Shown: positions 1,134 to 38,369 of the stretch, in pieces
Numbering within the stretch: position 1 is the first letter of the stretch
Layout of the letters: each line of letters opens with the position of its first letter
From: Candidatus Multivorans sp.
Lineage (GTDB): Bacteria; Acidobacteriota; Thermoanaerobaculia; Multivoradales; Multivoraceae
Assembly (NCBI GenBank): GCA_965247095.1
Contig: OZ251997.1
Location: 4,224,001-4,288,000, forward strand
Length of the DNA stretch: 64,000 nt
Reading direction: 5' to 3'
Notes under the pieces: generated by a model
The model's input: the letters and a program-made list of their open reading frames with translations, nothing else
What the model was told of the DNA's origin: nothing
The model's database searches: none
Program-made: the position numbers and the translations under genes

Positions 1134-2999
1134 ATGGACGGTGAGTCGGGAGGAATCCAGAAACCGCTCGCCCGCCTGTTCGCGTACATGCGCCTGGCGC
1201 CCGGCGCCTACGTCCTGGGCGGGGTTCTCACCCTCCTGTACGTCGCCTTCTTCCAGCTCATTCCGCTGGCGATTCGGAGCATCGTCGCCGCGCTCGAAGG
1301 TCCCGATCCCAGAGAGCTGATCCAGCGTCCGTTGCTGTACCTCGTGCTGGCCGCGTTCGGCCTGGCCACAACAAGGCTGTTCTCGCGGATCGTGATGTTC
1401 AACATCGGCCGCGAGATCGAGTACCGCATCCGCAACGACTACTTCGCCCACCTGCAGAGCCTGCCGCAGTCGTTCTACCTGGCGCATCGCACCGGCGATC
1501 TGATGTCGCGGGCCGTGAACGACATCAACAGCATCCGCATGTTTCTGGGGATGGGGCTCCTGAACCTGCTGCAGACGCCGGTGCTGTTCCTGGGCGGCCT
1601 GGTGGTCATGTTGCGCGTGGACGCTGCGCTGACCCTCTGGGCCATGGCGCCTTTCCCGCTCTTCGTGCTTGTTACACGGCACTACAGCCGGTACATGTTC
1701 CAGGCCAACCTGGCCGGCCAGGAGCAGCTCGGCAAGGTCTCGACCGTGGTGCAGGAGAACGCCTCGGGCGCTCTGGTGGTCAAGGCCTACGACCTGCCGG
1801 ACCTGGAGCGCGACCGCTTCGACGACCAGAACCAGGAGCTGTTCCGGCGCATGATGAAGGTCGGCGTCATGCAGACGACGATGTTCGCGTCCGTGAGTCT
1901 GGTGCCGTCCATCTCGGCTGCCCTGGTGCTGTGGCTGGGGGGCCAGAGGGTGCAGGCGGGCCTGCTCGGCATCGAGGATCTGTGGCTGTTCTGGGGCTAC
2001 ATCTTGATGCTGACCTTCCCGACCATGATGCTGGGGTTCGTCGTTTCGATCACCCAGCGCGGGCTCGCGGGGCTCGAGCGGTTGGGGACGGTGCTGGACA
2101 TCGTGCCCTCGATCCGCGACCGGGAGGATGTCGCGGAGGTCTCGGAGGTGGCCGGCCGGGTCGAGTTCCGCGACCTGACCTTCACCTATCCGGGCAGCTA
2201 CCTGCCGGCGCTCAGGGGGATCGACCTCGTCGTCGAAGCCGGCAGCACGGTCGGCATCGTGGGGCCGGTGGGGTCGGGCAAGACGACCCTGGTCAGCCTG
2301 GTGCCGCGGCTGCTGGAGGTCGACGATGGCGCGATCCTGATCGACGGCGTCGACCTCAACCGGATGCCGGTCCAGGTGCTGCGTTCGAGCATTGCCATGG
2401 TGCCGCAGGACAGCTTCCTGTTCTCCATCTCGGTGGCCGAGAACATCCGCTTCGGCGTTCCCGATGTCGATCTCGATGAGGTGCACCGGGCCGCGGCGCG
2501 GGCCCAGGTCGAGCGGGAGATCGAAGAGTTCGAGGACGGCTTCGAGACCGTCGTCGGCGAACGCGGCGTCACCCTCTCGGGCGGTCAGCGCCAGCGGGTC
2601 GCCCTGGCGCGGGCGATGATCCTGCGCCCCTCGATTCTCATCCTCGACGATTCGCTGTCGAGCGTCGACCACGGCACCGAGGAGGCGATCCTGGGCGACA
2701 TCGAGGGGAAGCGGCGCGGCCGCACCTGCTTCATCGTCGCGCACCGCATCTCGGCGGTGCGGAACGCCGATCAGATCGTCGTGCTCGAGAACGGCCGCAT
2801 CACGGAACGGGGGACGCACCGGGAACTGGTGGAGCTGGGCGGCTTCTACGCCCGCCTGCACCGTCGCCAGGAACTGCTGTCCGAGCTTGAACCCGGTTGG
2901 CGCGATCCCGCGCCAACCGCGAACCAGTCCGAGCGCCCGTCATCGGGCGCGCGGATGGCGCTCGGGGATGGCGGCGGCGTCGCTGGAGAGTCGAAGTGA
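1134..2999 (+). CDS. ABC exporter, fused TMD-NBD (heterodimer subunit 1)
   Basis: Membrane domain, Walker A GPVGSGKTT, signature LSGGQRQR, Walker B ILILDD (non-canonical D), H-loop IVAHR. Confidence 0.95.
   Translation: MDGESGGIQKPLARLFAYMRLAPGAYVLGGVLTLLYVAFFQLIPLAIRSIVAALEGPDPRELIQRPLLYLVLAAFGLATTRLFSRIVMFNIGREIEYRIRNDYFAHLQSLPQSFYLAHRTGDLMSRAVNDINSIRMFLGMGLLNLLQTPVLFLGGLVVMLRVDAALTLWAMAPFPLFVLVTRHYSRYMFQANLAGQEQLGKVSTVVQENASGALVVKAYDLPDLERDRFDDQNQELFRRMMKVGVMQTTMFASVSLVPSISAALVLWLGGQRVQAGLLGIEDLWLFWGYILMLTFPTMMLGFVVSITQRGLAGLERLGTVLDIVPSIRDREDVAEVSEVAGRVEFRDLTFTYPGSYLPALRGIDLVVEAGSTVGIVGPVGSGKTTLVSLVPRLLEVDDGAILIDGVDLNRMPVQVLRSSIAMVPQDSFLFSISVAENIRFGVPDVDLDEVHRAAARAQVEREIEEFEDGFETVVGERGVTLSGGQRQRVALARAMILRPSILILDDSLSSVDHGTEEAILGDIEGKRRGRTCFIVAHRISAVRNADQIVVLENGRITERGTHRELVELGGFYARLHRRQELLSELEPGWRDPAPTANQSERPSSGARMALGDGGGVAGESK
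2889..2966 (+). repeat. Double-hairpin element (family B), copy 1, in frame in the ABC subunit 1 C-terminus
   Basis: cggttggcgcg-atcc-cgcgccaaccg followed by ccagtccgagcgcccg-tcat-cgggcgcgcggatgg; homologous to copies at 4878 and 37727. Confidence 0.85.
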
Positions 3000-4855
3000 G
3001 CGAGGAACGCGGCGAAGCTACCGAGCCGGGTCGTGAGCGCGACCTGGGCAAGGTCTACGACAGGGCACTGCTCAAGCGGCTCTGGCCGTTCATGCGGCCC
3101 TACCGGGGCTGGATCGGCTTCAACTTCGCCCTGGTTCCGTTGCGTGCCGTCCTGGAGCTGATGCCGGCGCTAGTCGTGGGTGCGGCGCTCAACTACCTGA
3201 CCGAGGGTGTCGCGACGTCGGAGGTGGGGTGGATGGCGCCCTTCGTCGCGCCGCGGCTCGGCCTGCCGCCGCTGGCCTGGATGTTCATCCTGGTGCTCGG
3301 CATCTCGATGCTCACGCTGATCATGGAGTGGCTGCGCGCCTTCACCATGATCTCGCTCGGCCAGCGCACGATCCGCGACGTCCGGAGGACGCTGTTCGAT
3401 CACGTCCAGCGTCTGCCGATGCGCTTCTTCGACCGCTACCCGGTGGGCCGCCTGGTGACCCGGCTCACGAACGACCTGGAGAACCTGGCCGAGATGTTCT
3501 CGGCGGGCGTGATCGCGATGGTCGCGGACGTATTCGTGATGGTCGTGATCCTCTCCATGCTGTTTTCGATGGATCCCCGCTTGGCATTGGCGGCCCTCGC
3601 CCTAGTGCCCTTCCTGGGGATTGCGGCGGCGATCTTCCGCTACAAGGTGCGCGAGGCCTTCCGGGAGGTCCGGGTCAAGATCGCGCGCCTCAACGCCCAC
3701 CTGCAGGAAACGATCACCGGCATGAAGGTGGTTCAGTTGTTCGCCCGCGAACGGCGGAACCAGCGGGACTTCGAGCGCGAGAACGCCTCCCATCGCGATT
3801 CGTGGCTGCGTTCGATCCGCTACGACGCGTTGCTGTTCTCCTCCGTCGACCTGGCGACCAACCTGACCCGGGCGTTGATCTTCTGGTACGGCGCCAAGCT
3901 GCTCGGCGCCGGTGAGATCACGCTCGGCACGATCTACGTCTTCTCCGACTACATGGGCCGCTTCTTCCGGCCGCTGATGGACCTGTCGGCGAAGTACTCG
4001 GTAATGCAGTCCTCGATGGCGAGCGCCGAACGCGTGTTCCAGCTCCTCGACGAGCCGCGGGAGCCGGCGGGCCGGATCGAGTCGGCGGTCGAGGCTGCTG
4101 CCGGCCCGCAGCCCGGCGGCTGCGAGGTCGAGTTCGACGGCGTGACCTTCTCGTACGGCGCGGAGACGGTCCTGCGCGATGTCTCCTTCCGCGTCGCCGC
4201 CGGCGAGCGGGTGGCGATTGTCGGCCATACGGGCTCCGGCAAAACGACGACTCTCAAGCTGCTGGCGCGCCTCTACGAGCTGCAGGAGGGTTCGATCAAG
4301 GTCGACGGCCGGGACATCCGGGAGATCCCCAAGCCCGAACTGCGCCGCCGGATGGCCTTCGTGCTCCAGGACGTCTTTCTGTTCGACGGCGATCTGCGCT
4401 ACAACGTCGTCCTCGGCCGGAACGTCGCCGACGACGTGGTCGAGGAAGCCGCACGCGCCACCCACGTCGACGCCCTGATCGAGCAGTTGCCGAACGGCTG
4501 GCAGCACAAGGTCAGCGAGCGCGGCGTCAACTTCTCGACCGGCCAGCGGCAGTTGCTCTCCTTCGCCCGCGCCCTGGCGCGCGAACCCCAGCTCCTGCTC
4601 CTCGACGAAGCGACCTCCAGCGTCGACACCGAGACCGAGGCCCTGATCCAGGACGCCCTGCATCACCTGATGGAGGGCAAGACCTCGATCGTCGTCGCCC
4701 ACCGCCTGTCGACGATCAAGGACGTCGACCGCATCTACGTCTTCCACCACGGCGCCATCTGCGAGCACGGCAGCCACGACGAACTCCTCGACCAGCGCGG
4801 CGTCTACTGGCGGCTGTACCAGTTGCAGTACGCCCAGCAGGAGACGGCCGCGTAG
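2996..4855 (+). CDS. ABC exporter, fused TMD-NBD (heterodimer subunit 2)
   Basis: GTG start overlaps the previous TGA; GHTGSGKTT, degenerate signature FSTGQRQ, LLLLDE. Typical asymmetric heterodimeric exporter pair. Confidence 0.95.
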   Translation: MSEERGEATEPGRERDLGKVYDRALLKRLWPFMRPYRGWIGFNFALVPLRAVLELMPALVVGAALNYLTEGVATSEVGWMAPFVAPRLGLPPLAWMFILVLGISMLTLIMEWLRAFTMISLGQRTIRDVRRTLFDHVQRLPMRFFDRYPVGRLVTRLTNDLENLAEMFSAGVIAMVADVFVMVVILSMLFSMDPRLALAALALVPFLGIAAAIFRYKVREAFREVRVKIARLNAHLQETITGMKVVQLFARERRNQRDFERENASHRDSWLRSIRYDALLFSSVDLATNLTRALIFWYGAKLLGAGEITLGTIYVFSDYMGRFFRPLMDLSAKYSVMQSSMASAERVFQLLDEPREPAGRIESAVEAAAGPQPGGCEVEFDGVTFSYGAETVLRDVSFRVAAGERVAIVGHTGSGKTTTLKLLARLYELQEGSIKVDGRDIREIPKPELRRRMAFVLQDVFLFDGDLRYNVVLGRNVADDVVEEAARATHVDALIEQLPNGWQHKVSERGVNFSTGQRQLLSFARALAREPQLLLLDEATSSVDTETEALIQDALHHLMEGKTSIVVAHRLSTIKDVDRIYVFHHGAICEHGSHDELLDQRGVYWRLYQLQYAQQETAA

Positions 4856-4872
4856 GAGGAGTGGCATCCGCC

Positions 4873-4972
4873 CCTGGGAACCCGGGTGGCGCGATCCGCG
4901 CCACCCGTGAACCACTCCGTGCGCCCGTCATCGGGCGCACGGATGGCACCCGGGCGTCTCGCCCGCATCAGG
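4873..4972 (+). repeat. Family B double-hairpin element (4878-4954) nested inside a family A REP
   Basis: cctgggaac[ccgggtggcgcgatccgcgccacccg...cgggcgcacggatggcac]ccgggcgtctcgcccgcatc. Confidence 0.85.
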
Positions 4973-5022
4973 CGCGATGCCGCGAAGCGGCGAGCCCGAG
5001 CCGCCGCGCAACCGCCGCCCCT

Positions 5023-5760
5023 CTACCGCGGCCGCGACTGATGCCGCGGCGCCTCTACCTCCGTCTGCAGCCCCCGGTCCCCCTGATCCTCCATCCACGC
5101 CCGCAACCGGCTGAGCATCCCCTCGATCCGCCCCCCATGCTCCGACACCTCCGCCAGGTTCGTCATCTCATACGGGTCAACCTCGAGGACGAAGTCGTTG
5201 ATCAGATCGGGTCCAAAGACGTCCTCGCCCCAGGTCTCCTTCCGGTCGTTCGTCACCAGCGTCGGCCCCCAGTAGCGCGAGCCGCGCCCCTCGCGGCGGA
5301 GCTGCCACAGCCGGTGCTCGTCGAACCCCGCCTGCTGCGGCGAGGTGCCCTCGTGGACCACGAACAGGTTGTTCGTCAACTGCCACTTCCCCGAGATCAC
5401 CGTCCGGTACCCCGCCTGCGCCAGCACGTGGGCGAACGTGACGTCGCCCGCTTCGAGGTAGCTGAACTCCCGGTAGTTTCGGAAGTTGTGCAGCCCCGTC
5501 ATCAGCTTGACCCGGGTCGGCGTACACAGCGGCTGAGAGTGCCCGTTCTCGAACCGCATGCCCTCCGCCGCGATCCGGTCGAGTTCCGGCGTTTGGTACG
5601 ACGACCCGCCGTAGACGCCGAGGGTCTCGACGCCAAGGTCGTCGGCGAGGATGACGATGATGTTGGGTTGGTCTTGTTGCAGGGCGAAGGCTGCGCCGGT
5701 CGTCGTGAGCAGGGCCAGGCCGACCAGCAGGACGATTGCGAGGCGGGTCTTGGCTTGCAT
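5023..5760 (-). pseudogene. Sulfatase with a large in-frame internal deletion
   Basis: Signal peptide, PNIIVILADDLG, CTPTR, GKWQL; jumps from GPDLINDFVL directly to the C-terminal DPYEMTNLA; only about 245 aa. Confidence 0.8.
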
Positions 5761-5889
5761 GGACGTCAAGTTAGCAGCCGACCGGCGCTGGTCCGACGAC
5801 GTGCGACCGGCATGGAACCGGAGGCGGCGGCATACGGTTGCGCCGGTTCTGCCGTGGTAGCGTCCGAGCCGTACTTCGGGGGCGAGGCG

Positions 5890-6159
5890 ATGACTGTACC
5901 AAGCAGAAAATCCTACGACCGAGAACAGGTTGTTCGCTTGGTGGAGCAGTTGCCGGACCAGGAGATTCCGGCCGCCGGCCGCTATCTGGAGCAACTGGTC
6001 GAACGTCTGGAACCGTTCTCCAAGCATCTGATGGAAGCGCCCGACGACGACGAGGCCCTGAGTGAGAAAGGCAAGCGTCTTCTGGACGAGGGATATGAGG
6101 ACCTCGACGCCGGGCGAACTCACACTCTGGAGGAGGTAAAGCAGGAGCTTGACCTCTGA
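5890..6159 (+). CDS. Putative type II antitoxin
   Basis: 89 aa ending GYEDLDAGRTHTLEEVKQELDL, a typical RelE/ParE-partner C-terminus; overlaps the toxin start. Confidence 0.75.
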   Translation: MTVPSRKSYDREQVVRLVEQLPDQEIPAAGRYLEQLVERLEPFSKHLMEAPDDDEALSEKGKRLLDEGYEDLDAGRTHTLEEVKQELDL

Positions 6160-7383: not shown

Positions 7384-7437
7384 CCTTTACTCCAGCGGTG
7401 CGTTGACGAGCAACGGTTGTCGGCATAGGCTTGGCAT

Positions 7438-7704
7438 ATGCCGAACGTTGACGGAAGAGCAGAGCCGGTACCGACACGAGTAGCTCGCCTGTTTCGCAAC
7501 GGCCGAAATCAGGCGATTCGGATCCCCCGCGAGTTCGAACTGGATGCCGACGAGGTGGTCATTTACCGAGAACACCGGCGCCTGATCATCGAACCGGTTG
7601 ACCGGAAACCGTCGCTTGCAGCGGTGCTCGCTCGACTCGAACCGCTCGAGGAGGACTTCCCCGAGATCGAGGATCCTCCGACCAGGCCGGAAGATCTCCT
7701 CTGA
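7438..7704 (+). CDS. vapB: VapB antitoxin (AbrB/MazE/SpoVT fold)
   Basis: ARLFRNGRNQAIRIPREFEL motif. Confidence 0.9.
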   Translation: MPNVDGRAEPVPTRVARLFRNGRNQAIRIPREFELDADEVVIYREHRRLIIEPVDRKPSLAAVLARLEPLEEDFPEIEDPPTRPEDLL

Positions 7705-7716
7705 CCCGGCGGGACC

Positions 7717-8115
7717 GTGCTGCGGTACCTACTGGACACCAACGCCGTGTCCCAACTCGTCCGGCAGCCCGACGGTGAGGTCGCTCGGCGAGTCGCCGCA
7801 CTCGAACCGGGGAGCTTCGCCATCAGCGTCGTAGTGGCGGCTGAGCTTCGGTACGGCGCCGAACGTCGTGGTTCGTCGCGCCTCACAAGGCAGTTGGAGG
7901 CCGTCTTCTCGGCCATCGACGTGCTGCCGCTCGAGGAGCCCGTAGACCGCCACTACGGCGCCATTCGTAGCGAACTGGAGCGAGTCGGCCAGCCGATCGG
8001 GTCCAACGACTTGTTGATCGCCGCACACGCGAAGGCGCTTGGCGTGACATTGGTGACGAACAACCTCGGCGAGTTTCGGCGCGTGTCCGGGCTTGTCGTC
8101 GAGGATTGGCAGTGA
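7717..8115 (+). CDS. vapC: VapC PIN-domain toxin
   Basis: YLLDTN, AELRYG, IGSNDLLIAAHA, LVTNNLGEFRRVSGL motifs. Confidence 0.95.
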   Translation: MLRYLLDTNAVSQLVRQPDGEVARRVAALEPGSFAISVVVAAELRYGAERRGSSRLTRQLEAVFSAIDVLPLEEPVDRHYGAIRSELERVGQPIGSNDLLIAAHAKALGVTLVTNNLGEFRRVSGLVVEDWQ

Positions 8116-17016: not shown

Positions 17017-18936
17017 ATGCCCGCGACGATGCTCGGACGGTCCGCTCTACTGGCGTTCGCCGTAACCGCCCTTTCCTGCTCCGCCCCTTCGGCCGAGGAC
17101 GCTGCCGACGCTCCGCGGCCCGGGAACGCGGGCGTCCCACCCGTATCCGCCGCCCACCGGGTCGCCCTGTTCGGCGACCTGCACATCCACACGATGTACT
17201 CGCACGACGCGTTCATGGGCACCGTGCGGACGACGCCTGACGACGCCTACCGGTACGCCAAGGGGGAGGCGATTCCGCACCCCTCGGGCGAACAGTTGCG
17301 GCTCTCCGGCGCGCCGCTCGACTTCCTCGCGGTGACCGACCATGCGGAGTACCTGGGCGCTCTGGCAGCGCTGATCGATCCGTCGAGCGCGACCTACGGA
17401 CATCCCCTGACCGAGGATCTCTTCGGCGGGCTTGGCCGCGGCAACCGGGCGCGGTTGGGAGCGCTGGCCCGGATGCGGGAACTGGCGCGTGCGGGCGACC
17501 CGATCAACGGCCCGGAGGTACGGGGAAGCGCCTGGCAGCGGATCATCGAGGCCGCCGAACGGCACAATGACCCGGGCCGGTTCACGGCGCTGATCGGCTA
17601 CGAGTACACGATGGGGGTGAGTAGCCGCCACTTGCACCGGAACGTGATCTTCCGCGGCAGCGAGGTGCCGGAGCTGCCCTTCAGTTCTCTCGACGGCGAT
17701 CCCGAGGACCTCTGGACCTGGCTCGATGGGCTGCGCGAGGAGGGGATCGAGGCGTTGGCCATGCCGCACAACATGAACCAGAGCGACGGTCTGGCCTTTC
17801 CCGACCGGGAGACCTGGAAGGGCGCGGAGATCGACGCGGCGTTCGCGGCCAAGCGGATACGGAACGAACCGGTGGCCGAGATCAGCCAGCAGAAGGGCAC
17901 CTCGGAGGTCCATCCGTCGCTGTCGCCCAACGACGAGTGGGCCGACTTCCAGATCGTCCAGTACTTCCTGGACCGGGTGAACAACACGGATCCGATCTCG
18001 GTCTTCAAGGGCGGCTACTACCGGGACGCGTTGCTGACCGGGCTGGAGATGGGCGAGAGCCTGGGCGTGAACCCCTACGCTCTCGGTGCGATCGGTTCGA
18101 GCGACAGCCACGTCAGCGCCGGTTCCTTCGAGGAGGACAATCGCTTCTCGGGGAGGGCGAATACGCCCCAGTCCCGCGGTTCCGCCTACAGCGAGGAGGA
18201 CGGCGGCTGGGAGAACTTCTGGACGCCGCGCCAGGCGACCCACGGCAGCGGCGGCCTGGCCGGGGTGTGGGCCGGCGAGAACACCCGTGCGGCGATCTTC
18301 GACGCGCTGAAGCGGCGCGAGTCGTTCGCCACTTCGGGCACGCGCATCCGGGTGCGCTTCTTCGGCGGCTTCGGGCTCGAGGAAGCGCTCGGGGGTGAAC
18401 CCGATGCCGTCGCCGCGGCGTACGAGCACGGCGTGCCGATGGGCGGCGACCTCTCGGGCGGTCAAACCGACGAGTCTCCTGGGAACGCGGGCGTCTCGCC
18501 CGCATCCGGCGCCGGCGCCCCGAGCTTCCTGGTCTGGGCGCTGCGCGACCCGGAGAACGGCTGGCTGCAGCGGGCCCAGGTCATCAAGGGCTGGCTGGAA
18601 GACGGCCAAGCGATGGAGCAGGTCTACGACGTCGGCTGCTCGGACGGCCTGGAGCCCGACCCCGAAACCCACCGCTGCGCCGACAACGGCGCCCTGGTGA
18701 ACCTCGCCGACTGCTCCATCAGCCGCGACAAGGGTGCGGTGGAACTGAGCGCCACCTGGACCGACCCGGACTTCGACCCCGGCGCGCGCTCCTTCTACTA
18801 CGTCCGGGTGCTCGAGAACCCCACCTGCCGCTGGTCCACGTGGGACGCTTTGGGACTCGGCATCGAGCCGAACCCCGACCTGCCCGCGACCCACCAGGAA
18901 CGGGCGTGGAGCTCGCCCATCTGGTACACGCCATGA
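17017..18936 (+). CDS. DUF3604 (PHP-like metallohydrolase) lipoprotein
   Basis: FGDLHIHTMYSHDA, LDFLAVTDHAE, GYEYT, LHRNVIFRG, SSDSH, QERAWSSPIWY; lipobox-like ALSC. Confidence 0.9.
   Translation: MPATMLGRSALLAFAVTALSCSAPSAEDAADAPRPGNAGVPPVSAAHRVALFGDLHIHTMYSHDAFMGTVRTTPDDAYRYAKGEAIPHPSGEQLRLSGAPLDFLAVTDHAEYLGALAALIDPSSATYGHPLTEDLFGGLGRGNRARLGALARMRELARAGDPINGPEVRGSAWQRIIEAAERHNDPGRFTALIGYEYTMGVSSRHLHRNVIFRGSEVPELPFSSLDGDPEDLWTWLDGLREEGIEALAMPHNMNQSDGLAFPDRETWKGAEIDAAFAAKRIRNEPVAEISQQKGTSEVHPSLSPNDEWADFQIVQYFLDRVNNTDPISVFKGGYYRDALLTGLEMGESLGVNPYALGAIGSSDSHVSAGSFEEDNRFSGRANTPQSRGSAYSEEDGGWENFWTPRQATHGSGGLAGVWAGENTRAAIFDALKRRESFATSGTRIRVRFFGGFGLEEALGGEPDAVAAAYEHGVPMGGDLSGGQTDESPGNAGVSPASGAGAPSFLVWALRDPENGWLQRAQVIKGWLEDGQAMEQVYDVGCSDGLEPDPETHRCADNGALVNLADCSISRDKGAVELSATWTDPDFDPGARSFYYVRVLENPTCRWSTWDALGLGIEPNPDLPATHQERAWSSPIWYTP
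17119..17150 (+). repeat. REP family A, in frame (PGNAGVPPVSA) in the DUF3604 N-terminal linker
   Basis: cccgggaacgcgggcgtcccacccgtatccgc. Confidence 0.75.
18478..18510 (+). repeat. REP family A, in frame (PGNAGVSPASG) inside DUF3604
   Basis: cctgggaacgcgggcgtctcgcccgcatccggc; absent at the equivalent position of the paralogue (GGDLLANGDRAPKL). Confidence 0.9.
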
Positions 18937-20721: not shown

Positions 20722-20749
20722 CGTGTGTCTCCGTCTGGTTTTCGCCGGC

Positions 20750-20781
20750 CCTGGGAACGCGGGCGTCTCGCCCGCATCCGC
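20750..20781 (+). repeat. REP family A, intergenic
   Basis: cctgggaacgcgggcgtctcgcccgcatccgc. Confidence 0.9.
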
Positions 20782-21231
20782 TTAGCCGTCCTCTTCATCC
20801 GACTCCGACTCGGGGTCCGATTCCGGTTCCGAGTCGGATTCCGGCCACTCCGCACCCTGTTCGATCCACAGACGGATCGTCTCGATCTGCTCGACCGTCA
20901 ACTGGGTGCCCGCCTCGTGCGGCGGCATCCGCATCTCCGCGAATTCGGAACTGACCCGGAGGTAGAGCTCGCTGTCGTCGGGGTCGCCGGGCGCGATATT
21001 GGGATAGCCGCCGAGGTCGGCGAAAGCGCGCTCCTTGATGTCGAGCCTGAGATTCGCCTCCCGGCGCGCACGGTCGGGACCATGGCACTCGTAGCAGAAG
21101 GCCTCGAGAATGGGCTGCACCTGGGTGGCGTAGTCGACCTTGTCCTCGGTGTGGCCGTTCGCCCGCGGGGCCCCGATCCAGCCCGCGGCGAGCAGAGCCA
21201 GCGGAATGGTGAACAGACGGCGTGCTCTCAT
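20782..21231 (-). CDS. Planctomycete-type cytochrome c domain protein
   Basis: Signal peptide, VQPILEAFCYECHG, LRLD, PGDPDDSEL, RMPP, IRLWIEQGA. Confidence 0.85.
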   Translation of the reverse strand: MRARRLFTIPLALLAAGWIGAPRANGHTEDKVDYATQVQPILEAFCYECHGPDRARREANLRLDIKERAFADLGGYPNIAPGDPDDSELYLRVSSEFAEMRMPPHEAGTQLTVEQIETIRLWIEQGAEWPESDSEPESDPESESDEEDG

Positions 21232-24761: not shown

Positions 24762-24776
24762 CGCTGCCGCTTCGCG

Positions 24777-24808
24777 GCGGATGCGGGCGAGACGCCCGCG
24801 TTCCCAGG
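24777..24808 (-). repeat. REP family A, intergenic, inverted
   Basis: gcggatgcgggcgagacgcccgcgttcccagg. Confidence 0.9.
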
Positions 24809-27203: not shown

Positions 27204-27825
27204 CGGACTGCACGGCAGAACGACCTGCAGCTCCGTTCCTGGGAACGCGGGCGTCTCGCCCGCATCCGGCGCGAAGCGCCGGCCCGTAGGCGCCAGTGCG
27301 ATCTTCCTGTTCGCCCTGCTCGGCGCCACGGGCATGGCTGTTGCCGCCGAGGAGTCGGAGCGCACCGGTCTCGGCCACGAAGCCACCGCCGCGGAACTCC
27401 AGGCGGCCGGCTTCACCGTCTTTCCCGACGGCAAGGGCTTGCCGGAAGGCCAGGGAACCGCGCGCGAGGGTAGGGCCGTCTACCAGCAATTCTGCGCCGC
27501 CTGCCATGGGCGAAACGCCGGCGGAGAGGACGCTGCGGCGCTGGTCGGCGGCCGCGGCAGCCTGACCTCGGAGCGGCCTCGGCGGACGGTTGAGAGCTAT
27601 TGGCCCTACGCCACGACCGTCTGGGACTACATCCGCCGCTCCATGCCCTACGAGGCGCCCGGCTCACTCACAGACGACGAGATCTACGCCGTCGTCGCCC
27701 ACCTGCTGCACCTCGGCGGGATCGTCGGCGAGGACGAAGTGCTCGACCGCGAGAGCCTGCCGCGGGTCGAGATGCCGAACCGCGACGGGTTCGTACCGGA
27801 CGACCGGCCCGACACGGGCCCTTAG
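27190..27825 (+). CDS. SoxD-like monoheme cytochrome c
   Basis: PDGKGLPEGQGT, CAACHG, YWPYATTVWDYIRRSMP, MPNRDGF. Confidence 0.88.
   Translation: MSRPSGLHGRTTCSSVPGNAGVSPASGAKRRPVGASAIFLFALLGATGMAVAAEESERTGLGHEATAAELQAAGFTVFPDGKGLPEGQGTAREGRAVYQQFCAACHGRNAGGEDAAALVGGRGSLTSERPRRTVESYWPYATTVWDYIRRSMPYEAPGSLTDDEIYAVVAHLLHLGGIVGEDEVLDRESLPRVEMPNRDGFVPDDRPDTGP
27238..27270 (+). repeat. REP family A in the cytochrome c 5' region (PGNAGVSPASG if translated from 27190)
   Basis: Identical to 18478-18510. Confidence 0.9.
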
Positions 27826-27900: not shown

Positions 27901-27926
27901 GGACGACCGTTGCCGATCTTGACGCT

Positions 27927-30834: not shown

Positions 30835-32357
30835 CAGGGCAGCGGCATCTGTTCGCTTTCCACCTCGCGGGCCTGGTCGAATGCGGCCACGGGCTCCGCG
30901 GTGCGCACCTGCTCGAGCCAGAACACGCCGTCGAACTGGGCGCTGTTGCCGCGCGTGCCAACGAAGTCGACATCGCCGTCGCCGTCCATGTCGCGGGCGA
31001 CGAAGCTGTCGAACATGCCGCGCTTGCGCCGCGAGATGTCGTGCCGGGTCCACTCGGCGTCGATGTCGCCGGGGTTCTCGAACCAACTGAGCCGTCCGAG
31101 CGGTGTGTCGGGCTCGACCTCGCGGTCTTCCGCCCGCCCGCTGCGGCTGTAGGCGCCGGACATGGCATCCAAGTCGCCGTCGCCGTCGATGTCGGCGAAC
31201 GCGAAGCCGACCAGGCTGTCCGGGGTCAGCCGGCCGATCGGCCGCAACTGCCAGGTGTCTCCCGGATCGGCCGGCTGCTCCAGCCACACCAGGACACCGC
31301 CGAACTCCACCGTCGCGAGGTCCAGCCGGCCGTCGCCGGAGAGATCGACGAAAGCCATGTTGAAGCCGTTGACGAGTGCGCCCGAGTGGGGGGCGTTCGG
31401 CGGCCGGACGGTGTCGGCGGTGGTCGTGGTGCCCTCGATCCGGATCGCGTGCTCGACGAGTTCGACGGCGCCGGCGCTCCGGTTCTCGAACCAGAAGATC
31501 CGCCCCTCGCCGGTCGATCCGCCGACGATGTCCATGTCTCCGTCCTGATCGAGATCGACGGTTTGGGAATTGATCGGCCAGATCACCTGGACGATCTCGT
31601 GCTCGATCCACTGCCCGGAAAGCGGGTCGGCCGTGGTGTCGAACCAGGAGATCGGGTGCTTGGCGGTGCTTCTCCGATCGGGGTTCTGCGCACCCTTGTT
31701 CGGGGCGATGACCTCCGGCCGGCCGTCGCCGTCGAGGTCGCCGGTGAACACCCGGATGTACGAGCCCCGGTCCTTGGTCGCCGGCGGAATAACCCTCGGC
31801 CAGTCGCCGCTGCGGAGAGCGGCGGCCCCCTCTTCGGTCCCGGCGCCGGGGTTCTCGAAGTAGATCAGGTGGGCCAGCTCGCAGGCGGCAACGACGTCGA
31901 GATCGCCGTCGCCGTCGAAGTCGGAGATGGCGACATCCTCGGATCCGGCGGCCTCCGGCCCTTCGGCGAGGGTCGCCAGATGCCAGGTGTCGGGGTCTTC
32001 GGTGCCGAAGGCGAGCCGGACGTGACCCGCCCCTTCGTTGCCGTACTCGGTATCCGCCTCGTGGACGGAGACGATGTCGAGGTGGCCGTCGCCGTCGAGA
32101 TCGCCCATCTTGAGCCCGTCGCCGCCGCGGATCGCGACGCCGCCGAGCTCCGCGTCGTCGATGATGTGTTCGCTCCAGGAGATCCACTGTCCGTCCTGGG
32201 ACTGGGCGCGAGTCGGCGTGTCGGCGACCAGGTTGGAGGTGGGATCGGCCTCGGTCTCGCCGATCTGGCAGGCCGGCAGCGTCATGGCGAACGCCAGGAT
32301 CAGGCAAGGCGCCGCAGTCCGGCGCATGCGCGGCGAGACCTCGCGCAAACCGCTCAC
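30834..32357 (-). CDS. FG-GAP/VCBS repeat lipoprotein
   Basis: Repeated DxDGDGxxD motifs; LPAC lipobox; start GTG 32357 (overlapping the upstream stop) or ATG 32327. Confidence 0.88.
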   Translation of the reverse strand: MSGLREVSPRMRRTAAPCLILAFAMTLPACQIGETEADPTSNLVADTPTRAQSQDGQWISWSEHIIDDAELGGVAIRGGDGLKMGDLDGDGHLDIVSVHEADTEYGNEGAGHVRLAFGTEDPDTWHLATLAEGPEAAGSEDVAISDFDGDGDLDVVAACELAHLIYFENPGAGTEEGAAALRSGDWPRVIPPATKDRGSYIRVFTGDLDGDGRPEVIAPNKGAQNPDRRSTAKHPISWFDTTADPLSGQWIEHEIVQVIWPINSQTVDLDQDGDMDIVGGSTGEGRIFWFENRSAGAVELVEHAIRIEGTTTTADTVRPPNAPHSGALVNGFNMAFVDLSGDGRLDLATVEFGGVLVWLEQPADPGDTWQLRPIGRLTPDSLVGFAFADIDGDGDLDAMSGAYSRSGRAEDREVEPDTPLGRLSWFENPGDIDAEWTRHDISRRKRGMFDSFVARDMDGDGDVDFVGTRGNSAQFDGVFWLEQVRTAEPVAAFDQAREVESEQMPLP

Positions 32358-34213
32358 GGCCGGTACCAGATCGGTGACGACCAGGCCCGTTCCTGGATCG
32401 TCGGTGGCAGGTCGGGGCGCGGCTCGACACCGGCCCGGATCGCGTCCCAGGTCGACCAGCGGCAGGTCGGGTTCTCGAGCACCCGCAGGTAGTAGACCGC
32501 CCGCTGGCCGGGATCGAACCCGGGATCCTCGAACACGGTCCGGAGTTCCCCGGCGCCCAGGTCGGCCGAGATGCTGCAGTCGGAGACGTCCACCGTGGCG
32601 CCGTTGTCGGGGCAGCGCGGAGGATCGCCCGACGGCATGCCGCCGTCGGAGCAGGCGACGTCGAAGATCTTCTCGTGGGCTGCGCCGCCGTCGACCCAGC
32701 CCTTCACGACCTGGAGCCGCTGCAATCCGGCGCTTTCCGGGTCGCCCGAGGCCCAGAGCAGCAGCTTGGGCGCGCGGTCGCCGTTCGCCAGCAGGTCGCC
32801 CCCCATCGCGACGCCTTGCTCGTAGGCCTTGGCGATCATGTCGGGATCGTCGGCGAGATCCGCGTCCAGGTCGTAGCCGCCGAAGAACCGCACCTGGATC
32901 CGCGGTCCGCTGGTGGCGAACGTCTCCTTGCGGCGGAAGGCGTCGTAGATCGAGTCCCGGGTGTTCTCCTCGGCCCAGGCGCCGGTCAGACCGGAGGCGC
33001 CCCAGTTGTGGAAGTAGGTCTGGGCGTAGGCCGGGGAACCGTCCTCGTTCGGTTCGTCGAGCGGCACGGAGCCACGCAGTTGCGGCGTGCCGTCCCGGTT
33101 GCCGACCTTGCTGTGAAAGTTGTCCTCGTCCGGCGTGCCGCCGGCGTTGTGTGTGTCGGTGGCGCCGACGAGGCCGAAACGGAAGGGATTGAATCCCTGG
33201 GTCTCCTCGAGCAGCAACCCGTCGAGGTAGGCGGTGCGCACGTAGCTGCCCTTGGGCTCGCTGTAGAGCGTGGTCGCGATGCGGTGGGGCATGATCTCGA
33301 AGTCGGCCCACTCGTCGTTCGGCGACAGCAGCGGATGGACCTCGGACGTGCCCTTGACCTGGGTTACCTCGACCAGCGGCTCGTTGCGCATCCGGGTCTC
33401 GACGTACTCGGCGTCGAGCGGATCGCCACCGAACGTCATGAGGCTGAACATGTTGCCGTTGCTGCCGTTCGAGTTATGGGGGATGGCGAGCGCTTCGACA
33501 CCGTCGGCGCGCAGGCCGTCGAGCCAGGCCCACAGGTCCTCCGGATTGGCCGAGTCCATCGCGGTGAACGGGACCTCCGGCGCTTCGCTGCCGCGGAAGA
33601 TCACGTTGCGGTGGAGGTTGCCCTGGTCGGCAGCGATGGAGGTGTACTCGTAGCCGATGAAGGTGGTGAAGGCGCCGGGGTCGTTGTGCTGCTCCGCGGA
33701 CTCGACGATGCGCTGCCAGGCGGAGCGATTCGTCTGGGCCGCGTCGATCTCGTGAAACTCGCCGGCACGGTAGGCCTGCAGCGCGCGTTGGAAGCCCTCG
33801 GCGGGTCCCAGTTCGCGCAGCTCACTGGCGAGCGGGACTTCGTACAGCGGATCCTCCGGGTCGTCCATCGCCGGCAGAACGCCGAGCAGGATGCCGTGGT
33901 CGGTGACGGCCTGGAAGTCCAGCGGCCGGCTGAGCTGCATCGCGTGCCCGGCGGGGTGGAGGAGGGGCTCGCCGCGGGCGAAGCGGTAGGCGTCGTCGGG
34001 GCTGGCCCGGACCTCGAAGATGTAGGCGTCCATCGAGAAGCGGGTGTGGACGTGCAGATCGCCGAAGTAGGCGTTGCGCAGGGGATTGGGCTGTGGCGCA
34101 CTCGCCGCGTCCGACCCGTCAGTCCCGGCGCCGGCGCCATCGTCGGCTTCCCCGCAGCCGATCAGCAGCATCGGAACGACAAGCGCGAGCGCTGGAAGGC
34201 GTGTCCATCTCAT
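32354..34213 (-). CDS. DUF3604 (PHP-like metallohydrolase) lipoprotein, paralogue 2
   Basis: LIGC lipobox, YFGDLHVHTRFSMDA, VTDH, NLHRNVIFRG, ATDTHN, QERAWSSPIWY. Confidence 0.9.
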   Translation of the reverse strand: MRWTRLPALALVVPMLLIGCGEADDGAGAGTDGSDAASAPQPNPLRNAYFGDLHVHTRFSMDAYIFEVRASPDDAYRFARGEPLLHPAGHAMQLSRPLDFQAVTDHGILLGVLPAMDDPEDPLYEVPLASELRELGPAEGFQRALQAYRAGEFHEIDAAQTNRSAWQRIVESAEQHNDPGAFTTFIGYEYTSIAADQGNLHRNVIFRGSEAPEVPFTAMDSANPEDLWAWLDGLRADGVEALAIPHNSNGSNGNMFSLMTFGGDPLDAEYVETRMRNEPLVEVTQVKGTSEVHPLLSPNDEWADFEIMPHRIATTLYSEPKGSYVRTAYLDGLLLEETQGFNPFRFGLVGATDTHNAGGTPDEDNFHSKVGNRDGTPQLRGSVPLDEPNEDGSPAYAQTYFHNWGASGLTGAWAEENTRDSIYDAFRRKETFATSGPRIQVRFFGGYDLDADLADDPDMIAKAYEQGVAMGGDLLANGDRAPKLLLWASGDPESAGLQRLQVVKGWVDGGAAHEKIFDVACSDGGMPSGDPPRCPDNGATVDVSDCSISADLGAGELRTVFEDPGFDPGQRAVYYLRVLENPTCRWSTWDAIRAGVEPRPDLPPTIQERAWSSPIWYRP

Positions 34214-34267
34214 GGCGGATTTCCTCGAACGTAGTTGGGAGGTAGGATGCTGAGTGTAGCGTTTGCG

Positions 34268-34296
34268 AATCCGGCGCTTTGCGCCGGGTTCCCAGG
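34268..34296 (-). repeat. REP-like palindrome in the divergent promoter region
   Basis: Reverse complement cctgggaacccggcgcaaagcgccggatt. Confidence 0.6.
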
Positions 34297-34309
34297 ATCG
34301 GAACGAGAA

Positions 34310-35296: not shown

Positions 35297-35627
35297 CGTT
35301 TCACCGGTGAGCCCGGTTGCAAGCAACGACGGCGCCTCGGGCCACGTCATCGAGGCCAGGGAAGTGCCGCGGCCGAAGGTCCAGCGCGGCTACATCGAGA
35401 TCTTCGAGCAGCTCTGCAAGGGCTGCGATCTCTGCATCCCGGCCTGCCCGGTACGCATCATCGAGCCGGGGCGGGGCGCCAACATGATGGGCTGGAGGCC
35501 GGTGGTGGTGGAGGCGGACGCGATGAAGTACTGCATCGGCTGCAATCTCTGCGCGATGGTCTGCCCCGATCAGGCGATCGAGGTCCACCGTTTCGAGCGG
35601 CCGATTCCCCACGAGGAGTTGCCATGA
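35286..35627 (+). CDS. 2-oxoacid:ferredoxin oxidoreductase delta subunit (2x[4Fe-4S] ferredoxin)
   Basis: CKGCDLCIPACP and CIGCNLCAMVCPD. Confidence 0.9.
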   Translation: MSADVSPVSPVASNDGASGHVIEAREVPRPKVQRGYIEIFEQLCKGCDLCIPACPVRIIEPGRGANMMGWRPVVVEADAMKYCIGCNLCAMVCPDQAIEVHRFERPIPHEELP

Positions 35628-36883
35628 GCGAGAAGCCCTTCGAGCCGCCGATCGGCAAGCCGACGATGGGCGCTCACGCGATGGGGATCGGCGCCATGGT
35701 CGCCGGCCTCGACTACTTCGCCGGCTATCCGATCACCCCACAGACCGAACTGCTCGAGTACGTAGCGGAGGCCCTGCCCGAGCATGGCGGCGTCTTCCAG
35801 CAACTCGGCGACGAGATCTCGAGCGTCATGGCGGTGTTCGGCGCCGCCGCGTGCGGCAAGCGGGCGATGACCGCCTCGGTCGGCCCGGGACTGACGCTCA
35901 TGATCGACGGCCTGACCAACGCCGCCGGCGCCGAGACGCCGATGGTGCTGGGGGCGCTCACCCGCGCCCATGTCGGCGTCTCGGGCGGTCTCTATCCGGC
36001 GCAGTCGGACATTCGCATGCTGCGGGGTCTTGGCAACGGCGACTACCAGTTGCCGCTCTACGCGCCGTCGACGATCACCGAGACGGTCCAGTTCACCGCC
36101 GAGGCGTTCGACGTCGCCGATCTCTACAGCATCCCGGCGGTGGTCTGCATCGACGGCAAGATGGCGAACATGATCGAGACGCTGCAGCCGTTCGAGGTGC
36201 CGGAGCGCGACCTGCCGGACAAGACCTGGGCGCTCGACCGTTCGCTTAGGGAGAAGCGCCGGGTGGTGGGCGCGGCCCGAACGCCCGAACTCGACACGAT
36301 GGTCTGCTACGAGATCCAGAACAAGCTCGAGCGGATGCGCGCGGAGGAGACGCGCTGGGACACCTTCCTCTGCGACGACGCCGAGTTCGTCGTAGTCGCC
36401 TACGGCATCATGGCGAGGATCGCGAGAGAGGCGGTCAAGCGGGCGCGCGAGGAAGGGATCAAGGTCGGGCTCTTCCGGCCGATCACCCTCTTCCCGTTCC
36501 CGGAGGCGCCGCTCGGCGACCTCGCCGCCAGCGCCCGGGAGATGCTGATGGTCGAGATCAACTTCGGCCAGGTCCTCACCGACGTGCGCCTGGCGGTCGC
36601 CGGTCGGTGCCCTGTCCAGTTCCTGGGACAGCCGGCCCTGGCGATCCCGGCCGGGGCCGTGCTCGAAGCCATCCGGCAGATGGCAGCCGGGCAGCCGGTC
36701 GAGCCGCGGGACTTCTTCGACATCCATCCCACCGCCTTCCACCTCGCCGACACCCATCCCCCGGCGAGAAGGCAGATGCTCGACCAACTCGCCGCCAAAC
36801 GGGGGCGCGACAGCGCCCAGGGGATGCTCGACAACCTGCTGGGCATCCGCAAGAACTCGGTGATCCCGGAGATTGGAAAGTGA
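35624..36883 (+). CDS. 2-oxoacid:ferredoxin oxidoreductase alpha subunit (Vor/Kor-like)
   Basis: FAGYPITPQTE, RAMTASVGPG, GLFRPITLFPFP, VEINFGQ. Confidence 0.92.
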   Translation: MSEKPFEPPIGKPTMGAHAMGIGAMVAGLDYFAGYPITPQTELLEYVAEALPEHGGVFQQLGDEISSVMAVFGAAACGKRAMTASVGPGLTLMIDGLTNAAGAETPMVLGALTRAHVGVSGGLYPAQSDIRMLRGLGNGDYQLPLYAPSTITETVQFTAEAFDVADLYSIPAVVCIDGKMANMIETLQPFEVPERDLPDKTWALDRSLREKRRVVGAARTPELDTMVCYEIQNKLERMRAEETRWDTFLCDDAEFVVVAYGIMARIAREAVKRAREEGIKVGLFRPITLFPFPEAPLGDLAASAREMLMVEINFGQVLTDVRLAVAGRCPVQFLGQPALAIPAGAVLEAIRQMAAGQPVEPRDFFDIHPTAFHLADTHPPARRQMLDQLAAKRGRDSAQGMLDNLLGIRKNSVIPEIGK

Positions 36884-37716
36884 CTGAACCAGCCGCACGG
36901 TCGACGAAGCGCTACACGCCGCCCGAGGGCGCTGCCGCGCGCAAGATCTCGCCCCAGCTCGATGTCCATACCGGGCTGCCGTCGTCCTGGTGTCCGGGGT
37001 GCGGGCACGGGTCGGTCAGCCAGATCCTGTGCGATCTGGTGACCGAGCTCGATCTGGCCGAGAGGACGATCCTGGCCCTGGGCGTCGGCTGCGGCTCGGC
37101 GATCGCGGCGCAGATGGAGGTGAACACGGTGCTCTCGCCGCACGGCCGCGCCAGCGACACCGCCACCGGCGTCTCGCGCATGGTCCCCGACCGCGTCGTC
37201 GTCCAGTACTCGGGCGACGGCGACTCCTGCGGCATCGGGCTGGCGGGCCTGATGCACGCCTGCAACCGGCGCGAGAACTTCATCGTCGTCATCTACAACA
37301 ACAACGCCTATGGCATGACCGGCGGCCAGATGGGCCCGACCACCACCAAGGACGTGCCGACGACCAACTTCCAGGGCGGCCGCGACGAGGAGGTCATGGG
37401 CTATCCCATGGACATCATCAAGACCCTGGCGCACTTTCCCGGCGTGGTCTATGCGGGGCGTTGCGCTCTGACCTCGGGTGTCCGCTACGGGGAGGCGAGC
37501 CGGATGATCCGGCGGGCCTTCGAAATTCACCTCGCCGGCATCAAGGGGATGAAGGTCATCGACTGCCTCGGCAACTGCAACGTGAACTGGAAGGGCGGCG
37601 GCGTGACCTTCACGCCGGAGAGCTCGAACCAGTTCATCGAAGACAAGATCATGAAGTACTTCGAGATGGGCGAGGCGACGGTGCCTGAGGGCTACCCGCC
37701 GATCCGCGTGCGATGA
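36880..37716 (+). CDS. 2-oxoacid:ferredoxin oxidoreductase beta subunit (TPP-binding)
   Basis: WCPGCGHG, GVGC, HGRA, GDGD...NNNAYGMTGGQMGPTT; GTG start overlapping the alpha stop. Confidence 0.92.
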   Translation: MTEPAARSTKRYTPPEGAAARKISPQLDVHTGLPSSWCPGCGHGSVSQILCDLVTELDLAERTILALGVGCGSAIAAQMEVNTVLSPHGRASDTATGVSRMVPDRVVVQYSGDGDSCGIGLAGLMHACNRRENFIVVIYNNNAYGMTGGQMGPTTTKDVPTTNFQGGRDEEVMGYPMDIIKTLAHFPGVVYAGRCALTSGVRYGEASRMIRRAFEIHLAGIKGMKVIDCLGNCNVNWKGGGVTFTPESSNQFIEDKIMKYFEMGEATVPEGYPPIRVR

Positions 37717-38369
37717 CGGCGGGCGCGAACCCGGGTGGCGCGATCTCGCGCCACCCGCGAACCACTCCGTGTGCCCGTCATCGGGCGCACGGATGGAACC
37801 CGGGCAGGCCTGTGGTCGAGCGCGTCGGCGGCGCCGGCACCGGCGGCGCCGGTCTGCTGACCTGCCTCAAGACGCTCGGCTACGCGGCCGCCGCCAAGGG
37901 CTGGCACATGGCCTACACCTCCGACTACAACCCGGAGACCCGCGGCGGCCTGGTGGAGGGCACGGTCGTCCTGTCGAGCGACGAGCCGATCGACAACCCG
38001 GTGATCGAGTCGTACACCGCGGTGCTGGCGTTCGATCACGCCGGCTACCTGTCCTACGGCCCGGGCGTCGAGCCCGGCGGGCTCATCCTGTGGGACAGTT
38101 CGAGGGTCAGGAATCCGCCACCCCTGGTGGGCGTCCGGTCGTACGGCGTGCCGGTGTTCCAGTTGGCGCGCGACGGCGGCGCCCCGGGCCTCGCGAACAT
38201 GGGCATGCTGGGCCTCTACAACCGGATCGCCGGTCACTTCACCATCGACGAACTGCTCGCCGGCATGGAGGACTACCTGCCGGTCTGGCGTCACAAGCTG
38301 CTGCCGGGCAATCGGGCGGTGCTCGAAGCGGTGTCCCGGATCGATCCCGAGGAGTACCGGGTTGCCTGA
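37713..38369 (+). CDS. 2-oxoacid:ferredoxin oxidoreductase gamma subunit
   Basis: GAGTGGAGLL, YNPETRGG, SSDEPIDNP, ANMGMLG; N-terminus carries a family B element. Confidence 0.88.
   Translation: MTAGANPGGAISRHPRTTPCARHRAHGWNPGRPVVERVGGAGTGGAGLLTCLKTLGYAAAAKGWHMAYTSDYNPETRGGLVEGTVVLSSDEPIDNPVIESYTAVLAFDHAGYLSYGPGVEPGGLILWDSSRVRNPPPLVGVRSYGVPVFQLARDGGAPGLANMGMLGLYNRIAGHFTIDELLAGMEDYLPVWRHKLLPGNRAVLEAVSRIDPEEYRVA
37727..37804 (+). repeat. Family B double-hairpin element, copy 3, in frame, bounded by direct gaacccggg
   Basis: gaacccggg at 37727-37735 and 37796-37804 (69 bp apart, 23 codons). Confidence 0.9.

Follow-up and report, generated by a model that had tools for sequence, protein, structure and literature searches.

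A short double-hairpin element occurs in three copies in a 64,000-nt stretch of the genome of Candidatus Multivorans sp. (GenBank assembly GCA_965247095.1, contig OZ251997.1, positions 4,224,001 to 4,288,000; hereafter the window, whose coordinates are used throughout). These copies belong to a small, non-autonomous, structured DNA repeat family of the Thermoanaerobaculia, the group of Acidobacteriota of which "Ca. Multivorans" is a member, found in this organism and its relatives; the family is new, whereas the kind of element is known. We consider it very probable that the element is an inserted, non-autonomous repeat. Close orthologues of three genes lack exactly the 23 residues that correspond to it, and copies with a length divisible by three are enriched in open reading frames (ORFs).

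Three Copies of a Double Hairpin in the Window

An earlier note on this DNA had described three copies, with a paired base swap in hairpin 1 and a G-T pair in hairpin 2 of one of them. All three are present at the positions it gave, on the + strand. Their exact limits were derived from the comparison of filled with empty sites:

Copy 1: 2892–2960, + strand, 69 nt, GAA (2889–2891) immediately 5′; 23 in-frame codons (PGWRDPAPTANQSERPSSGARMA) in the tail of ABC exporter gene 1
Copy 2: 4881–4948, + strand, 68 nt, GAA (4878–4880) immediately 5′; intergenic, within a copy of a second repeat, "repeat B"
Copy 3: 37730–37798, + strand, 69 nt, GAA (37727–37729) immediately 5′; between the stop of the beta subunit gene of a 2-oxoacid:ferredoxin oxidoreductase (OFOR) and GTG 37812
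Hairpin 1 of copy 2: 4883–4907, + strand, 11-bp stem (4883–4893/4897–4907) with a 3-nt loop
Hairpin 2 of copy 2: 4912–4946, + strand, stem of 3 + 12 bp with one bulged base and the loop TCAT (4928–4931)

Approximately 72 positions can be aligned among the three copies, the flanks of which are unrelated. Each + strand forms two hairpins, with folding energies between −53 and −60 kcal/mol; against dinucleotide shuffles, the z-scores are −4.4 (copy 1), −6.5 (copy 2), and −6.1 (copy 3). The swap in hairpin 1 is T-A in copy 1 and G-C in the others, and the G-T pair is found in hairpin 2 of copy 3, both as described; an A-G mismatch within hairpin 2 of copy 1 was absent from the earlier note. Copies 1 and 3 measure 69 nt because the loop of hairpin 1 has 4 nt in them and 3 nt in copy 2. 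The GC content of the element is approximately 74%, that of the window 64–71%.

Filled and Empty Sites in Protein-Coding Genes

The copies are associated with the following genes:

ABC exporter gene 1 (ABC_membrane and ABC_tran domains): 1134–2999, + strand, start at 1116 or 1134, copy 1 in its tail
ABC exporter gene 2: 2996–4855, + strand, GTG start overlapping the stop of gene 1
OFOR beta subunit (TPP_enzyme_C domain): 36880–37716, + strand, TGA 37714–37716 overlapping ATG 37713
OFOR gamma subunit: 37713–38369, + strand, POR domain at residues 44–206 of the long ORF

Copy 1 lies in frame in ORF 1116–2999, within its final 36 codons, and the stop codon of this gene (TGA 2997–2999) overlaps GTG 2996 of ABC exporter gene 2. 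In the orthologues P0047, P0052, and P0054 (approximately 83–91% identity) the protein reads SELE-LGDG, where the window has SELE, 23 residues, and LGDGG. The element is present in the orthologues P0045 and P0069 and decayed in P0046, and P0055 is short-tailed. Copy 2 begins 22 nt past the stop of ABC exporter gene 2.

Copy 3 lies in frame in the longest ORF for the gamma subunit (37713–38369), in a frame that differs from that of copy 1. A gamma orthologue with 97% identity, P0002, is 195 aa long against 218 aa and lacks exactly 23 residues at copy 3, so that the leader of the window protein minus 69 nt has the length of the P0002 leader. None of the seven gamma orthologues aligned contains the element; their leaders have 0 to 14 residues before the conserved ERxGGAG. 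A start at ATG 37713 would have copy 3 translated as NPGGAISRHPRTTPCARHRAHGW, whereas with a start at GTG 37812 it lies within a 95-nt spacer. The gamma subunit may start at this GTG, directly past copy 3, as many orthologues do and as a codon-usage gene caller chose. Translation of the leader gains mild support from the 69-nt length of copy 3 and from a C at the one place where T would give an in-frame TGA. The placement of copy 3 inside the gamma gene therefore holds only if ATG 37713 is the start.

The clearest intragenic copies are those of relatives. In the SelB of locus L050 (658 aa), the element occupies residues 311–335, within the match to a beta-barrel domain. Exactly 23 residues are missing in eight of ten aligned SelB orthologues, five of which have 635 aa and the most distant of which is 73% identical; one further orthologue shares the insertion. 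In the helicase Lhr of two species (loci L004 and L022), residues 320–344 derive from the element and lie between the DEAD and Helicase_C matches, in a stretch where mycobacterial Lhr has a loop of similar length. The ORF of an FG-GAP/ASPIC protein likewise holds the element, and in other proteins it lies close to an end. The exact 23-residue gaps in orthologues of ABC exporter 1, gamma, and SelB identify these copies as insertions, and empty sites of the kind that the earlier note had proposed to look for in orthologues do exist (gamma P0002; ABC exporter 1 P0047, P0052, and P0054). Its suggestion that the element adds peptide segments within genes, in the manner of Rickettsia palindromic elements (RPEs), is borne out by the copies in the conserved SelB and Lhr genes, where the added segment would be translated.

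The association that it had drawn between the 69-nt length and a coding position holds for the family. Lengths divisible by three were found in 9 of the 11 copies within ORFs and in 22 of the 69 intergenic ones (Fisher p = 0.0025, or p = 0.005 when one of the two orthologous Lhr copies is left out). This enrichment bears on the idea that in-gene copies are only apparent, an artefact that long open frames produce where DNA is rich in GC, and that the element is always extragenic. The gamma copy can be read in that way, as a spacer before a GTG at which many orthologues start and which the gene caller selected, and N-terminal REP (repetitive extragenic palindromic) positions are often annotation artefacts according to an excerpt of PMC3733652. 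The SelB and Lhr copies, however, lie hundreds of codons from either end of their genes and between domain matches, and the frame of ABC exporter gene 1 has no stop before 2997. As a general account we hold the artefact explanation to be very unlikely; it is already refuted for SelB, Lhr, and ABC exporter 1, and gamma alone remains.

The SelB orthologue P0188 (691 aa) has a different insert at the same point, of 56 residues rich in Pro, Ala, Gly, and Gln; the position may be a hot spot, or this insert may be an old, expanded insertion. The element also reaches genes on the opposite strand. At loci L001, L010, L015, L053, L054, and L058, and at the truncated copy of L079, an opposite-strand gene ends within the element, and its last residues, ...HP[C/S/R]AR followed by TGA, are the complement of hairpin 2 and the TCAT loop, from which it follows that the repeat supplies a new C-terminus together with the stop codon. 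Three proteins (P0042–P0044; one ABC ATPase and two DSBA-like proteins) matched the gamma query solely through the element-encoded peptide, hence protein similarity searches in this lineage are polluted by the repeat.

Boundaries and Target Sequence

CCCGGG and GGATGG(C/A)A form the left and right ends of the unit, within which two GC-rich hairpins, different from each other, follow one another in direct order. GAA immediately precedes the unit, and no target bases are duplicated. Comparison of filled sites with their hosts allowed six empty sites to be reconstructed, all of which end in GAA and show zero duplicated bases. The hosts were ABC exporter 1, gamma, SelB, repeat B in copies that either carry or lack the element, a related hairpin that has the element in its loop, and a short repeat in which the position of the element differs between L038 and L070. 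In the family alignment (94 distinct rows, see below), NGAA immediately precedes the unit in 76 rows, and the six bases 3′ of it read CNCGGG in 29 rows, GGCCGG in 16, GACCCG in 8, and vary in the rest. GAAC precedes each hairpin of the element and also the hairpin of repeat B.

The earlier note had the unit bounded by a direct (GA)ACCCGGG repeat and proposed ACCCGGG as the target. Of the three copies, only copy 3 has this bounding repeat in perfect form, and as host sequence 3′ of the unit reads CNCGGG in only 29 of 94 rows, we take it to be a trait of some targets only. ACCCGGG as a general target does not hold, the constant feature being the 5′ GAA. Two other parses were rejected: GAACCC...GGATGG fits SelB and fails at ABC exporter 1, and a target duplication of GAA or AAC is contradicted by L038 and by GGCA, the right end that prevails. 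Long identical flanks of L005, L017, L018, L043, and L070 had suggested an insertion sequence (IS) that carries the element; the neighboring genes all differ, and the shared flank is therefore only another short repeat.

These boundaries bear on two alternatives. A classical MITE (a miniature transposable element with inverted repeats), cut and pasted by a DDE transposase of the host, is close to refuted, as there is no inverted repetition between the two ends (CCCGGG... and ...GGATGG(C/A)A) and none of the six reconstructed sites has a target duplication; in its favor are DDE-type genes in the window (rve/HTH_Tnp_1 at 52893–54376 and DDE_Tnp_1 at 60629–61783) and an rve fragment beside the L028 copy. 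The second alternative invokes DNA-level processes only, such as template switching in palindromes and gene conversion, with spread by recombination at GAAC(N)CGGG homology and neither selection nor a dedicated enzyme. It is consistent with the resemblance of the left junction, GAA|CCCGGG, to the right one, G(C/A)A|CNCGGG, in the 29 of 94 rows, with head-to-tail dimers in L001 and L097, and with an element identity of 99–100%, above that of neighboring coding DNA. Against it, the right-hand homology is missing in two-thirds of the copies, insertions occur at unrelated sites that have GAA alone in common, and the TCAT loop is kept beyond what pairing needs (10 of the 14 copies found without a search pattern). 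This conservation of the loop points instead to recognition by a protein, and we regard DNA-level processes by themselves as an improbable explanation.

A Repeat Family of the Thermoanaerobaculia

To retrieve the family, species-representative genomes were scanned with a 24-position pattern of hairpin 2; the family counts cover the matches listed. The scan gave at least 102 loci in at least 21 assemblies, with up to 14 per assembly among the matches listed. Nineteen of these assemblies are labelled Ca. Multivorans, Thermoanaerobaculia, Acidobacteria, or Vicinamibacteraceae, and in them at least 98 loci have at least hairpin 2. The two other assemblies contributed chance matches to the pattern, without hairpin 1 (L073 and L090). 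Hairpin 2 stands by itself in L003 and L067, in two genomes that also have full copies, for which reason the unit may be assembled from separable modules. The alignment comprised 94 loci and the three window copies (97 sequences; the 94 distinct rows were used for family counts); L003, L067, L073, and L090 were excluded for want of hairpin 1, L029 for a contig end, and L026, L063, and L079 for internal deletions. Row lengths were 68 nt in 53, 69 nt in 30, 67 nt in 5, and 66 nt in 6 of the 94.

A covariance model built from the trimmed alignment found 14 additional copies in 648 kb of loci. The genome search and the model thus extended the multi-copy structured element of the earlier note well beyond its three copies. 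With filters off, the model recovered only these three in the window, at 91–103 bits, all of them among its 97 building sequences, and the remaining weak matches are reverse-strand images of the palindromes. A search with an 18-mer allowing three mismatches was uninformative (3 matches against 1.18 expected, equalled in 11 of 100 shuffles). Density is 3 copies per 64 kb in the window and approximately 1 per 46 kb in the flanks; extrapolated to genomes of 4.4–5.4 Mb, this suggests that each has copies numbering around a hundred or more. The head-to-tail dimers are located at 3998–4208 of L001 and 123–327 of L097, the second copy beginning right after the ...ACA end of the first. Literature searches found no description of the repeat family, nothing among the papers listed that links Thermoanaerobaculia with REP, MITE, or palindromic repeats, and no papers for "Candidatus Multivorans" or "azotirespirans".

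Conservation of the Hairpins

Across the 94 distinct rows, 97.8% of cells in hairpin 1 are paired and both sides have changed in 6 of its 11 pairs; in hairpin 2 these values are 98.4% and 2 pairs. None of 500 shuffles matched any observed measure of pairing, and partners slid out of register were 31–48% paired, against 91.4%. In the 14 copies found without the search pattern, 10 of which have the TCAT loop, additional compensatory pairs are present. An outer closing stem was also considered and rejected, with only 66.7% of cells paired; it belongs to one class of host context and not to the element. On the given strand, G-T pairs outnumber A-C mismatches 36 to 13, a count inflated by copies that share descent, which is modest evidence that one strand is the one that folds.

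Orthologous copies upstream of rpsD in three species are 99–100% identical, against 84–98% in their 200-nt flanks. The two orthologous Lhr copies are 96% identical and adjoin an upstream linker that has diverged strongly; of the three positions at which they differ, two make up a single compensatory change from T-A to C-G, which hints at selection on the hairpin within coding sequence. The pattern of constraint fits either selection on structure or homogenization between copies.

Genomic Placement

Placement was determined for 91 copies, from loci longer than 3 kb plus the window, with a crude home-made codon-usage gene caller on which these counts depend:

Intergenic, between convergent genes: 25 copies
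Intergenic, between tandem genes, antisense: 23 copies
Intergenic, between tandem genes, sense: 17 copies
Intergenic, between divergent genes: 4 copies
Partly overlapping a gene end: 11 copies
Fully within an ORF: 11 copies (8 sense, 3 antisense)

Intergenic copies thus make up 69 of the 91, with no bias of transcription orientation in tandem gene pairs. The placement bears on the possibility that the element acts chiefly in cis as an RNA structure (a stabilizer in the 3′ untranslated region, an attenuator, or a processing site), kept for its role in the transcript, with spread being secondary. Such a role would be in keeping with the preference for convergent (25) over divergent (4) gene pairs, with the tolerance of G-U-type pairs (36 to 13), and with orthologous copies that are better conserved than their flanks; composites of the element with repeat B, moreover, usually begin 5–40 nt past a stop codon and are sense in 7 and antisense in 2 tandem pairs. 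The sense bias of the composites can nevertheless be that of repeat B, and the element alone shows no orientation preference (17 sense, 23 antisense). Copies inside SelB and Lhr likewise speak against a role in RNA, as do the comparison with Rfam, in which neither the window nor any of 18 loci reached the gathering score, and the lack of a T-tract terminator at copies 1 and 2; a terminator and promoter scan of 2700–5200 detected nothing. A primary role in RNA appears unlikely to us.

Repeat B and Composite Arrangements

Repeat B consists of CCTGGGAAC and a hairpin with a 7-bp stem, often followed by a second hairpin. In 712 kb, 30 copies without the double-hairpin element were found with a simple pattern. 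In the window it occurs as follows:

Repeat B hairpin at copy 2: 4949–4975, + strand, directly after copy 2, which lies between it and the start of the B consensus, CCTGGGAA
Repeat B copies: 17118–17153, 18477–18512, 20749–20784, and 27237–27290, + strand
Repeat B copy: 24766–24808, − strand
Degenerate repeat B copy: near 9739, − strand

Repeat B is likewise found in frame in genes. At the copy at 18477, the DUF3604 protein encoded at 17017–18936 has a gap-free insert of 15 residues relative to its paralogue (32354–34171), and the copy at 27237 encodes residues before a signal-peptide-like hydrophobic stretch of a cytochrome c protein, the ATG of which (27190) has a strong Shine-Dalgarno sequence. 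Around composites of the element and repeat B in L012, L048, L056, L062, and L079 there is a longer inverted repeat, its outer pair approximately 10–12 bases in length, which sometimes adjoins CTA on both sides. This arrangement looks like a classical MITE with smaller repeats nested inside; the outer-repeat motif is absent from the window.

A Possible Mechanism and Its Difficulties

The explanation that we consider probable as a whole combines a dispersed family, insertion, persistence within genes, and mobilization in trans. The element is found inserted 3′ of GAA without target duplication, at sites that are mostly intergenic, often in or beside other short palindromic repeats, and sometimes within genes. 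Intragenic copies persist where their length is a multiple of three and their frame is open, as is true of most in-ORF copies (9 of 11), and would be read as a loop or tail of 23 residues. Mobilization would most likely occur as single-stranded DNA, by an enzyme of the HUH/Y1 type that recognizes hairpins, as in REPs with their REP-associated tyrosine transposases (RAYTs) or in IS200/IS605, with putative cuts after GAA (left end) and G(C/A)A (right end). In its anatomy, with one hairpin close to either end, a short 5′ target that is fixed, and neither duplication nor inverted repeats, the element comes closest to the single-strand HUH systems (excerpt of PMC6006769) and to REPs (excerpt of PMC3733652); an HUH mechanism is a tentative proposal that may well prove wrong. 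The earlier note had read the element as mobile. The data show the family, its conserved structure, presence and absence among close orthologues, the boundaries, and the in-frame copies within genes; active transposition, the class of enzyme, and translation of the peptides are inferred from them.

Several observations weigh against this explanation. Among 136 ORFs of 100–260 aa that flank the sampled copies, in DNA that amounts to less than 1% of the host genomes, none has a Y1/HUH, RAYT, or IS110 domain, so that the adjacent genes of these classes that the earlier note had advised looking for were not found there; nor is there a Y1/HUH, RAYT, or IS110-type gene among the 54 window proteins scanned. 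Only DDE-type transposases were seen. Beside the copies there is one rve fragment, at L028, and in the window such genes are limited to 52893–54376 and 60629–61783, in agreement with the observation of the earlier note that no cognate enzyme is visible there. The orientation of copies shows no bias relative to the strand of the neighboring gene (42 v 48) or to GC skew (47 v 43, with the skew of 8-kb flanks as a weak proxy). Strand-specific insertion at replication forks predicts such a bias. In two complete chromosomes, positions and strands of the matches listed, judged by eye, gave no two-replichore pattern. The SelB insertion has 69 nt although the copy is of the 68-nt form, and one extra G is needed; restoration of the frame is the sole explanation that we can offer for it. 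In the alignment, 20 positions of hairpin 2 were fixed by the retrieval pattern, which makes their invariance uninformative, and compensatory changes in DNA palindromes can arise from template switching or gene conversion between copies, without selection. The dependence of the context counts on the gene caller belongs here as well. Lastly, the element lacks the GTAG/CGTC tag of the REP superfamilies (as described in an excerpt of PMC3733652); each of its hairpins is preceded by GAAC.

A bolder extension is that GAAC-tagged hairpins form a third REP-like class beside GTAG and CGTC, moved by an as yet unrecognized single-strand enzyme of the Thermoanaerobaculia, that the 69-nt form is a frame-neutral sub-family that regularly gives essential proteins (SelB, Lhr, and the ABC exporter) loops of 23 residues, and that the hairpin is selected even in coding DNA. 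We put this forward as speculation that is unlikely to hold in full.

Comparison With Known Repeats

The element resembles RPEs in being palindromic, non-autonomous, and present in frame in unrelated housekeeping genes, to which it adds a conserved peptide while leaving the gene intact (excerpt of PMC10969869). RPEs are, however, approximately 150 bp long, AT-rich, and confined to Rickettsia, whereas the element has 68–69 nt and approximately 74% GC, occurs in Acidobacteriota, and follows GAA. RPEs end in CGTC (excerpt of PMC3733652), a motif that the 97-copy consensus has nowhere but at the top of hairpin 2. Insertion into ORFs is on record for almost half of all RPEs, which belong to three families out of ten (excerpt of PMC10969869); for the element the share is approximately 12% (11 of the 91 sampled copies). 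Judged by these descriptions, it would be an analogue of RPEs rather than a member, set apart by host, size, and composition.

Like REPs, the element is made of short, GC-rich hairpins, is present in many copies, and lies for the most part between genes in convergent or tandem arrangement; the two also have in common tolerance of G-T pairs, compensatory sub-families, occasional copies in genes, and insertion into small palindromes (excerpt of PMC3733652, where REPs within genes and REPs inserted into small palindromes are on record). Its hairpins of 25 and 35 nt fall within the palindrome length of approximately 20–40 bp that defines REPs. It differs in that its unit joins two unlike hairpins in direct order, whereas REPs occur singly or as an inverted pair (REPIN), and no RAYT was found near the sampled copies. 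Bacterial interspersed mosaic elements (BIMEs) are mosaics of alternating REP copies. The element, too, often forms regular, nested arrangements with other short palindromes; the difference is that here one repeat lies within another, either 5′ of the repeat B hairpin or in the loop of a related hairpin in opposite orientation.

Miniature derivatives of IS200/IS605 go by the name of PATEs. The element is similar to IS200/IS605 in its hairpin near each end, its lack of inverted repeats and duplication, and its insertion 3′ of a short fixed sequence (excerpt of PMC6006769). Hairpin 1, however, begins so close to the left end (2 nt) that the usual guide sequence would not fit, and neither an orientation bias of the element nor a TnpA gene among the flanking ORFs was seen. 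Acidobacteria are known to have Y1 transposases with atypical hairpins in high copy number, and such hairpin repeats number approximately 600 in Solibacter usitatus (excerpt of PMC6006769). Class 3 TnpA-Y1, of Acidobacteria and Planctomycetes, is similar in phylum and in its hairpin repeats, which number in the hundreds, but its hairpins have a CnGA foot (same excerpt), none of which was seen at either hairpin of the element when the consensus was inspected by eye.

Other Features of the Window

The OFOR operon consists of genes for a ferredoxin (35307–35627), alpha (35624–36883), beta (36880–37716), and gamma, with overlapping stops and starts, and a sulfatase gene (38406–39866) comes after it. 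The window is rich in sulfatases, FG-GAP proteins, pyrroloquinoline quinone (PQQ) dehydrogenases, and DUF3604 proteins, and has two toxin-antitoxin-like pairs at 7438–8115 and 48739–49264 (MazE-like plus PIN domain protein; ParE-like plus small upstream ORF). The part from 52000 to 64000 has a lower GC content (64–66%) and is probably mobile or recently rearranged. It contains the DDE-type genes mentioned above, an IS3-type transposase pair (52893–54376, − strand) and an IS4-like DDE transposase with DUF4372 (60629–61783, − strand), and a 1.6-kb internal duplication around a tannase-like gene (55364–55817 versus 56882–57420).

Significance

In-frame palindromic insertions have so far been described chiefly in Rickettsia, with REPs in genes of several other species. 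The present family in Acidobacteriota extends in-frame insertion to a GC-rich, free-living, uncultured lineage, and the evidence for it is unusually clean, with exact presence or absence of 23 residues at three genes and a frame-neutral length that is enriched in ORFs. For the annotation of these metagenome-assembled genomes it is a warning, as N-terminal extensions and odd C-terminal tails made by the repeat are common. Its two hairpins, with putative cuts after GAA and G(C/A)A, are moreover a defined substrate with which to search for the enzyme that would move such repeats where a RAYT is not evident.

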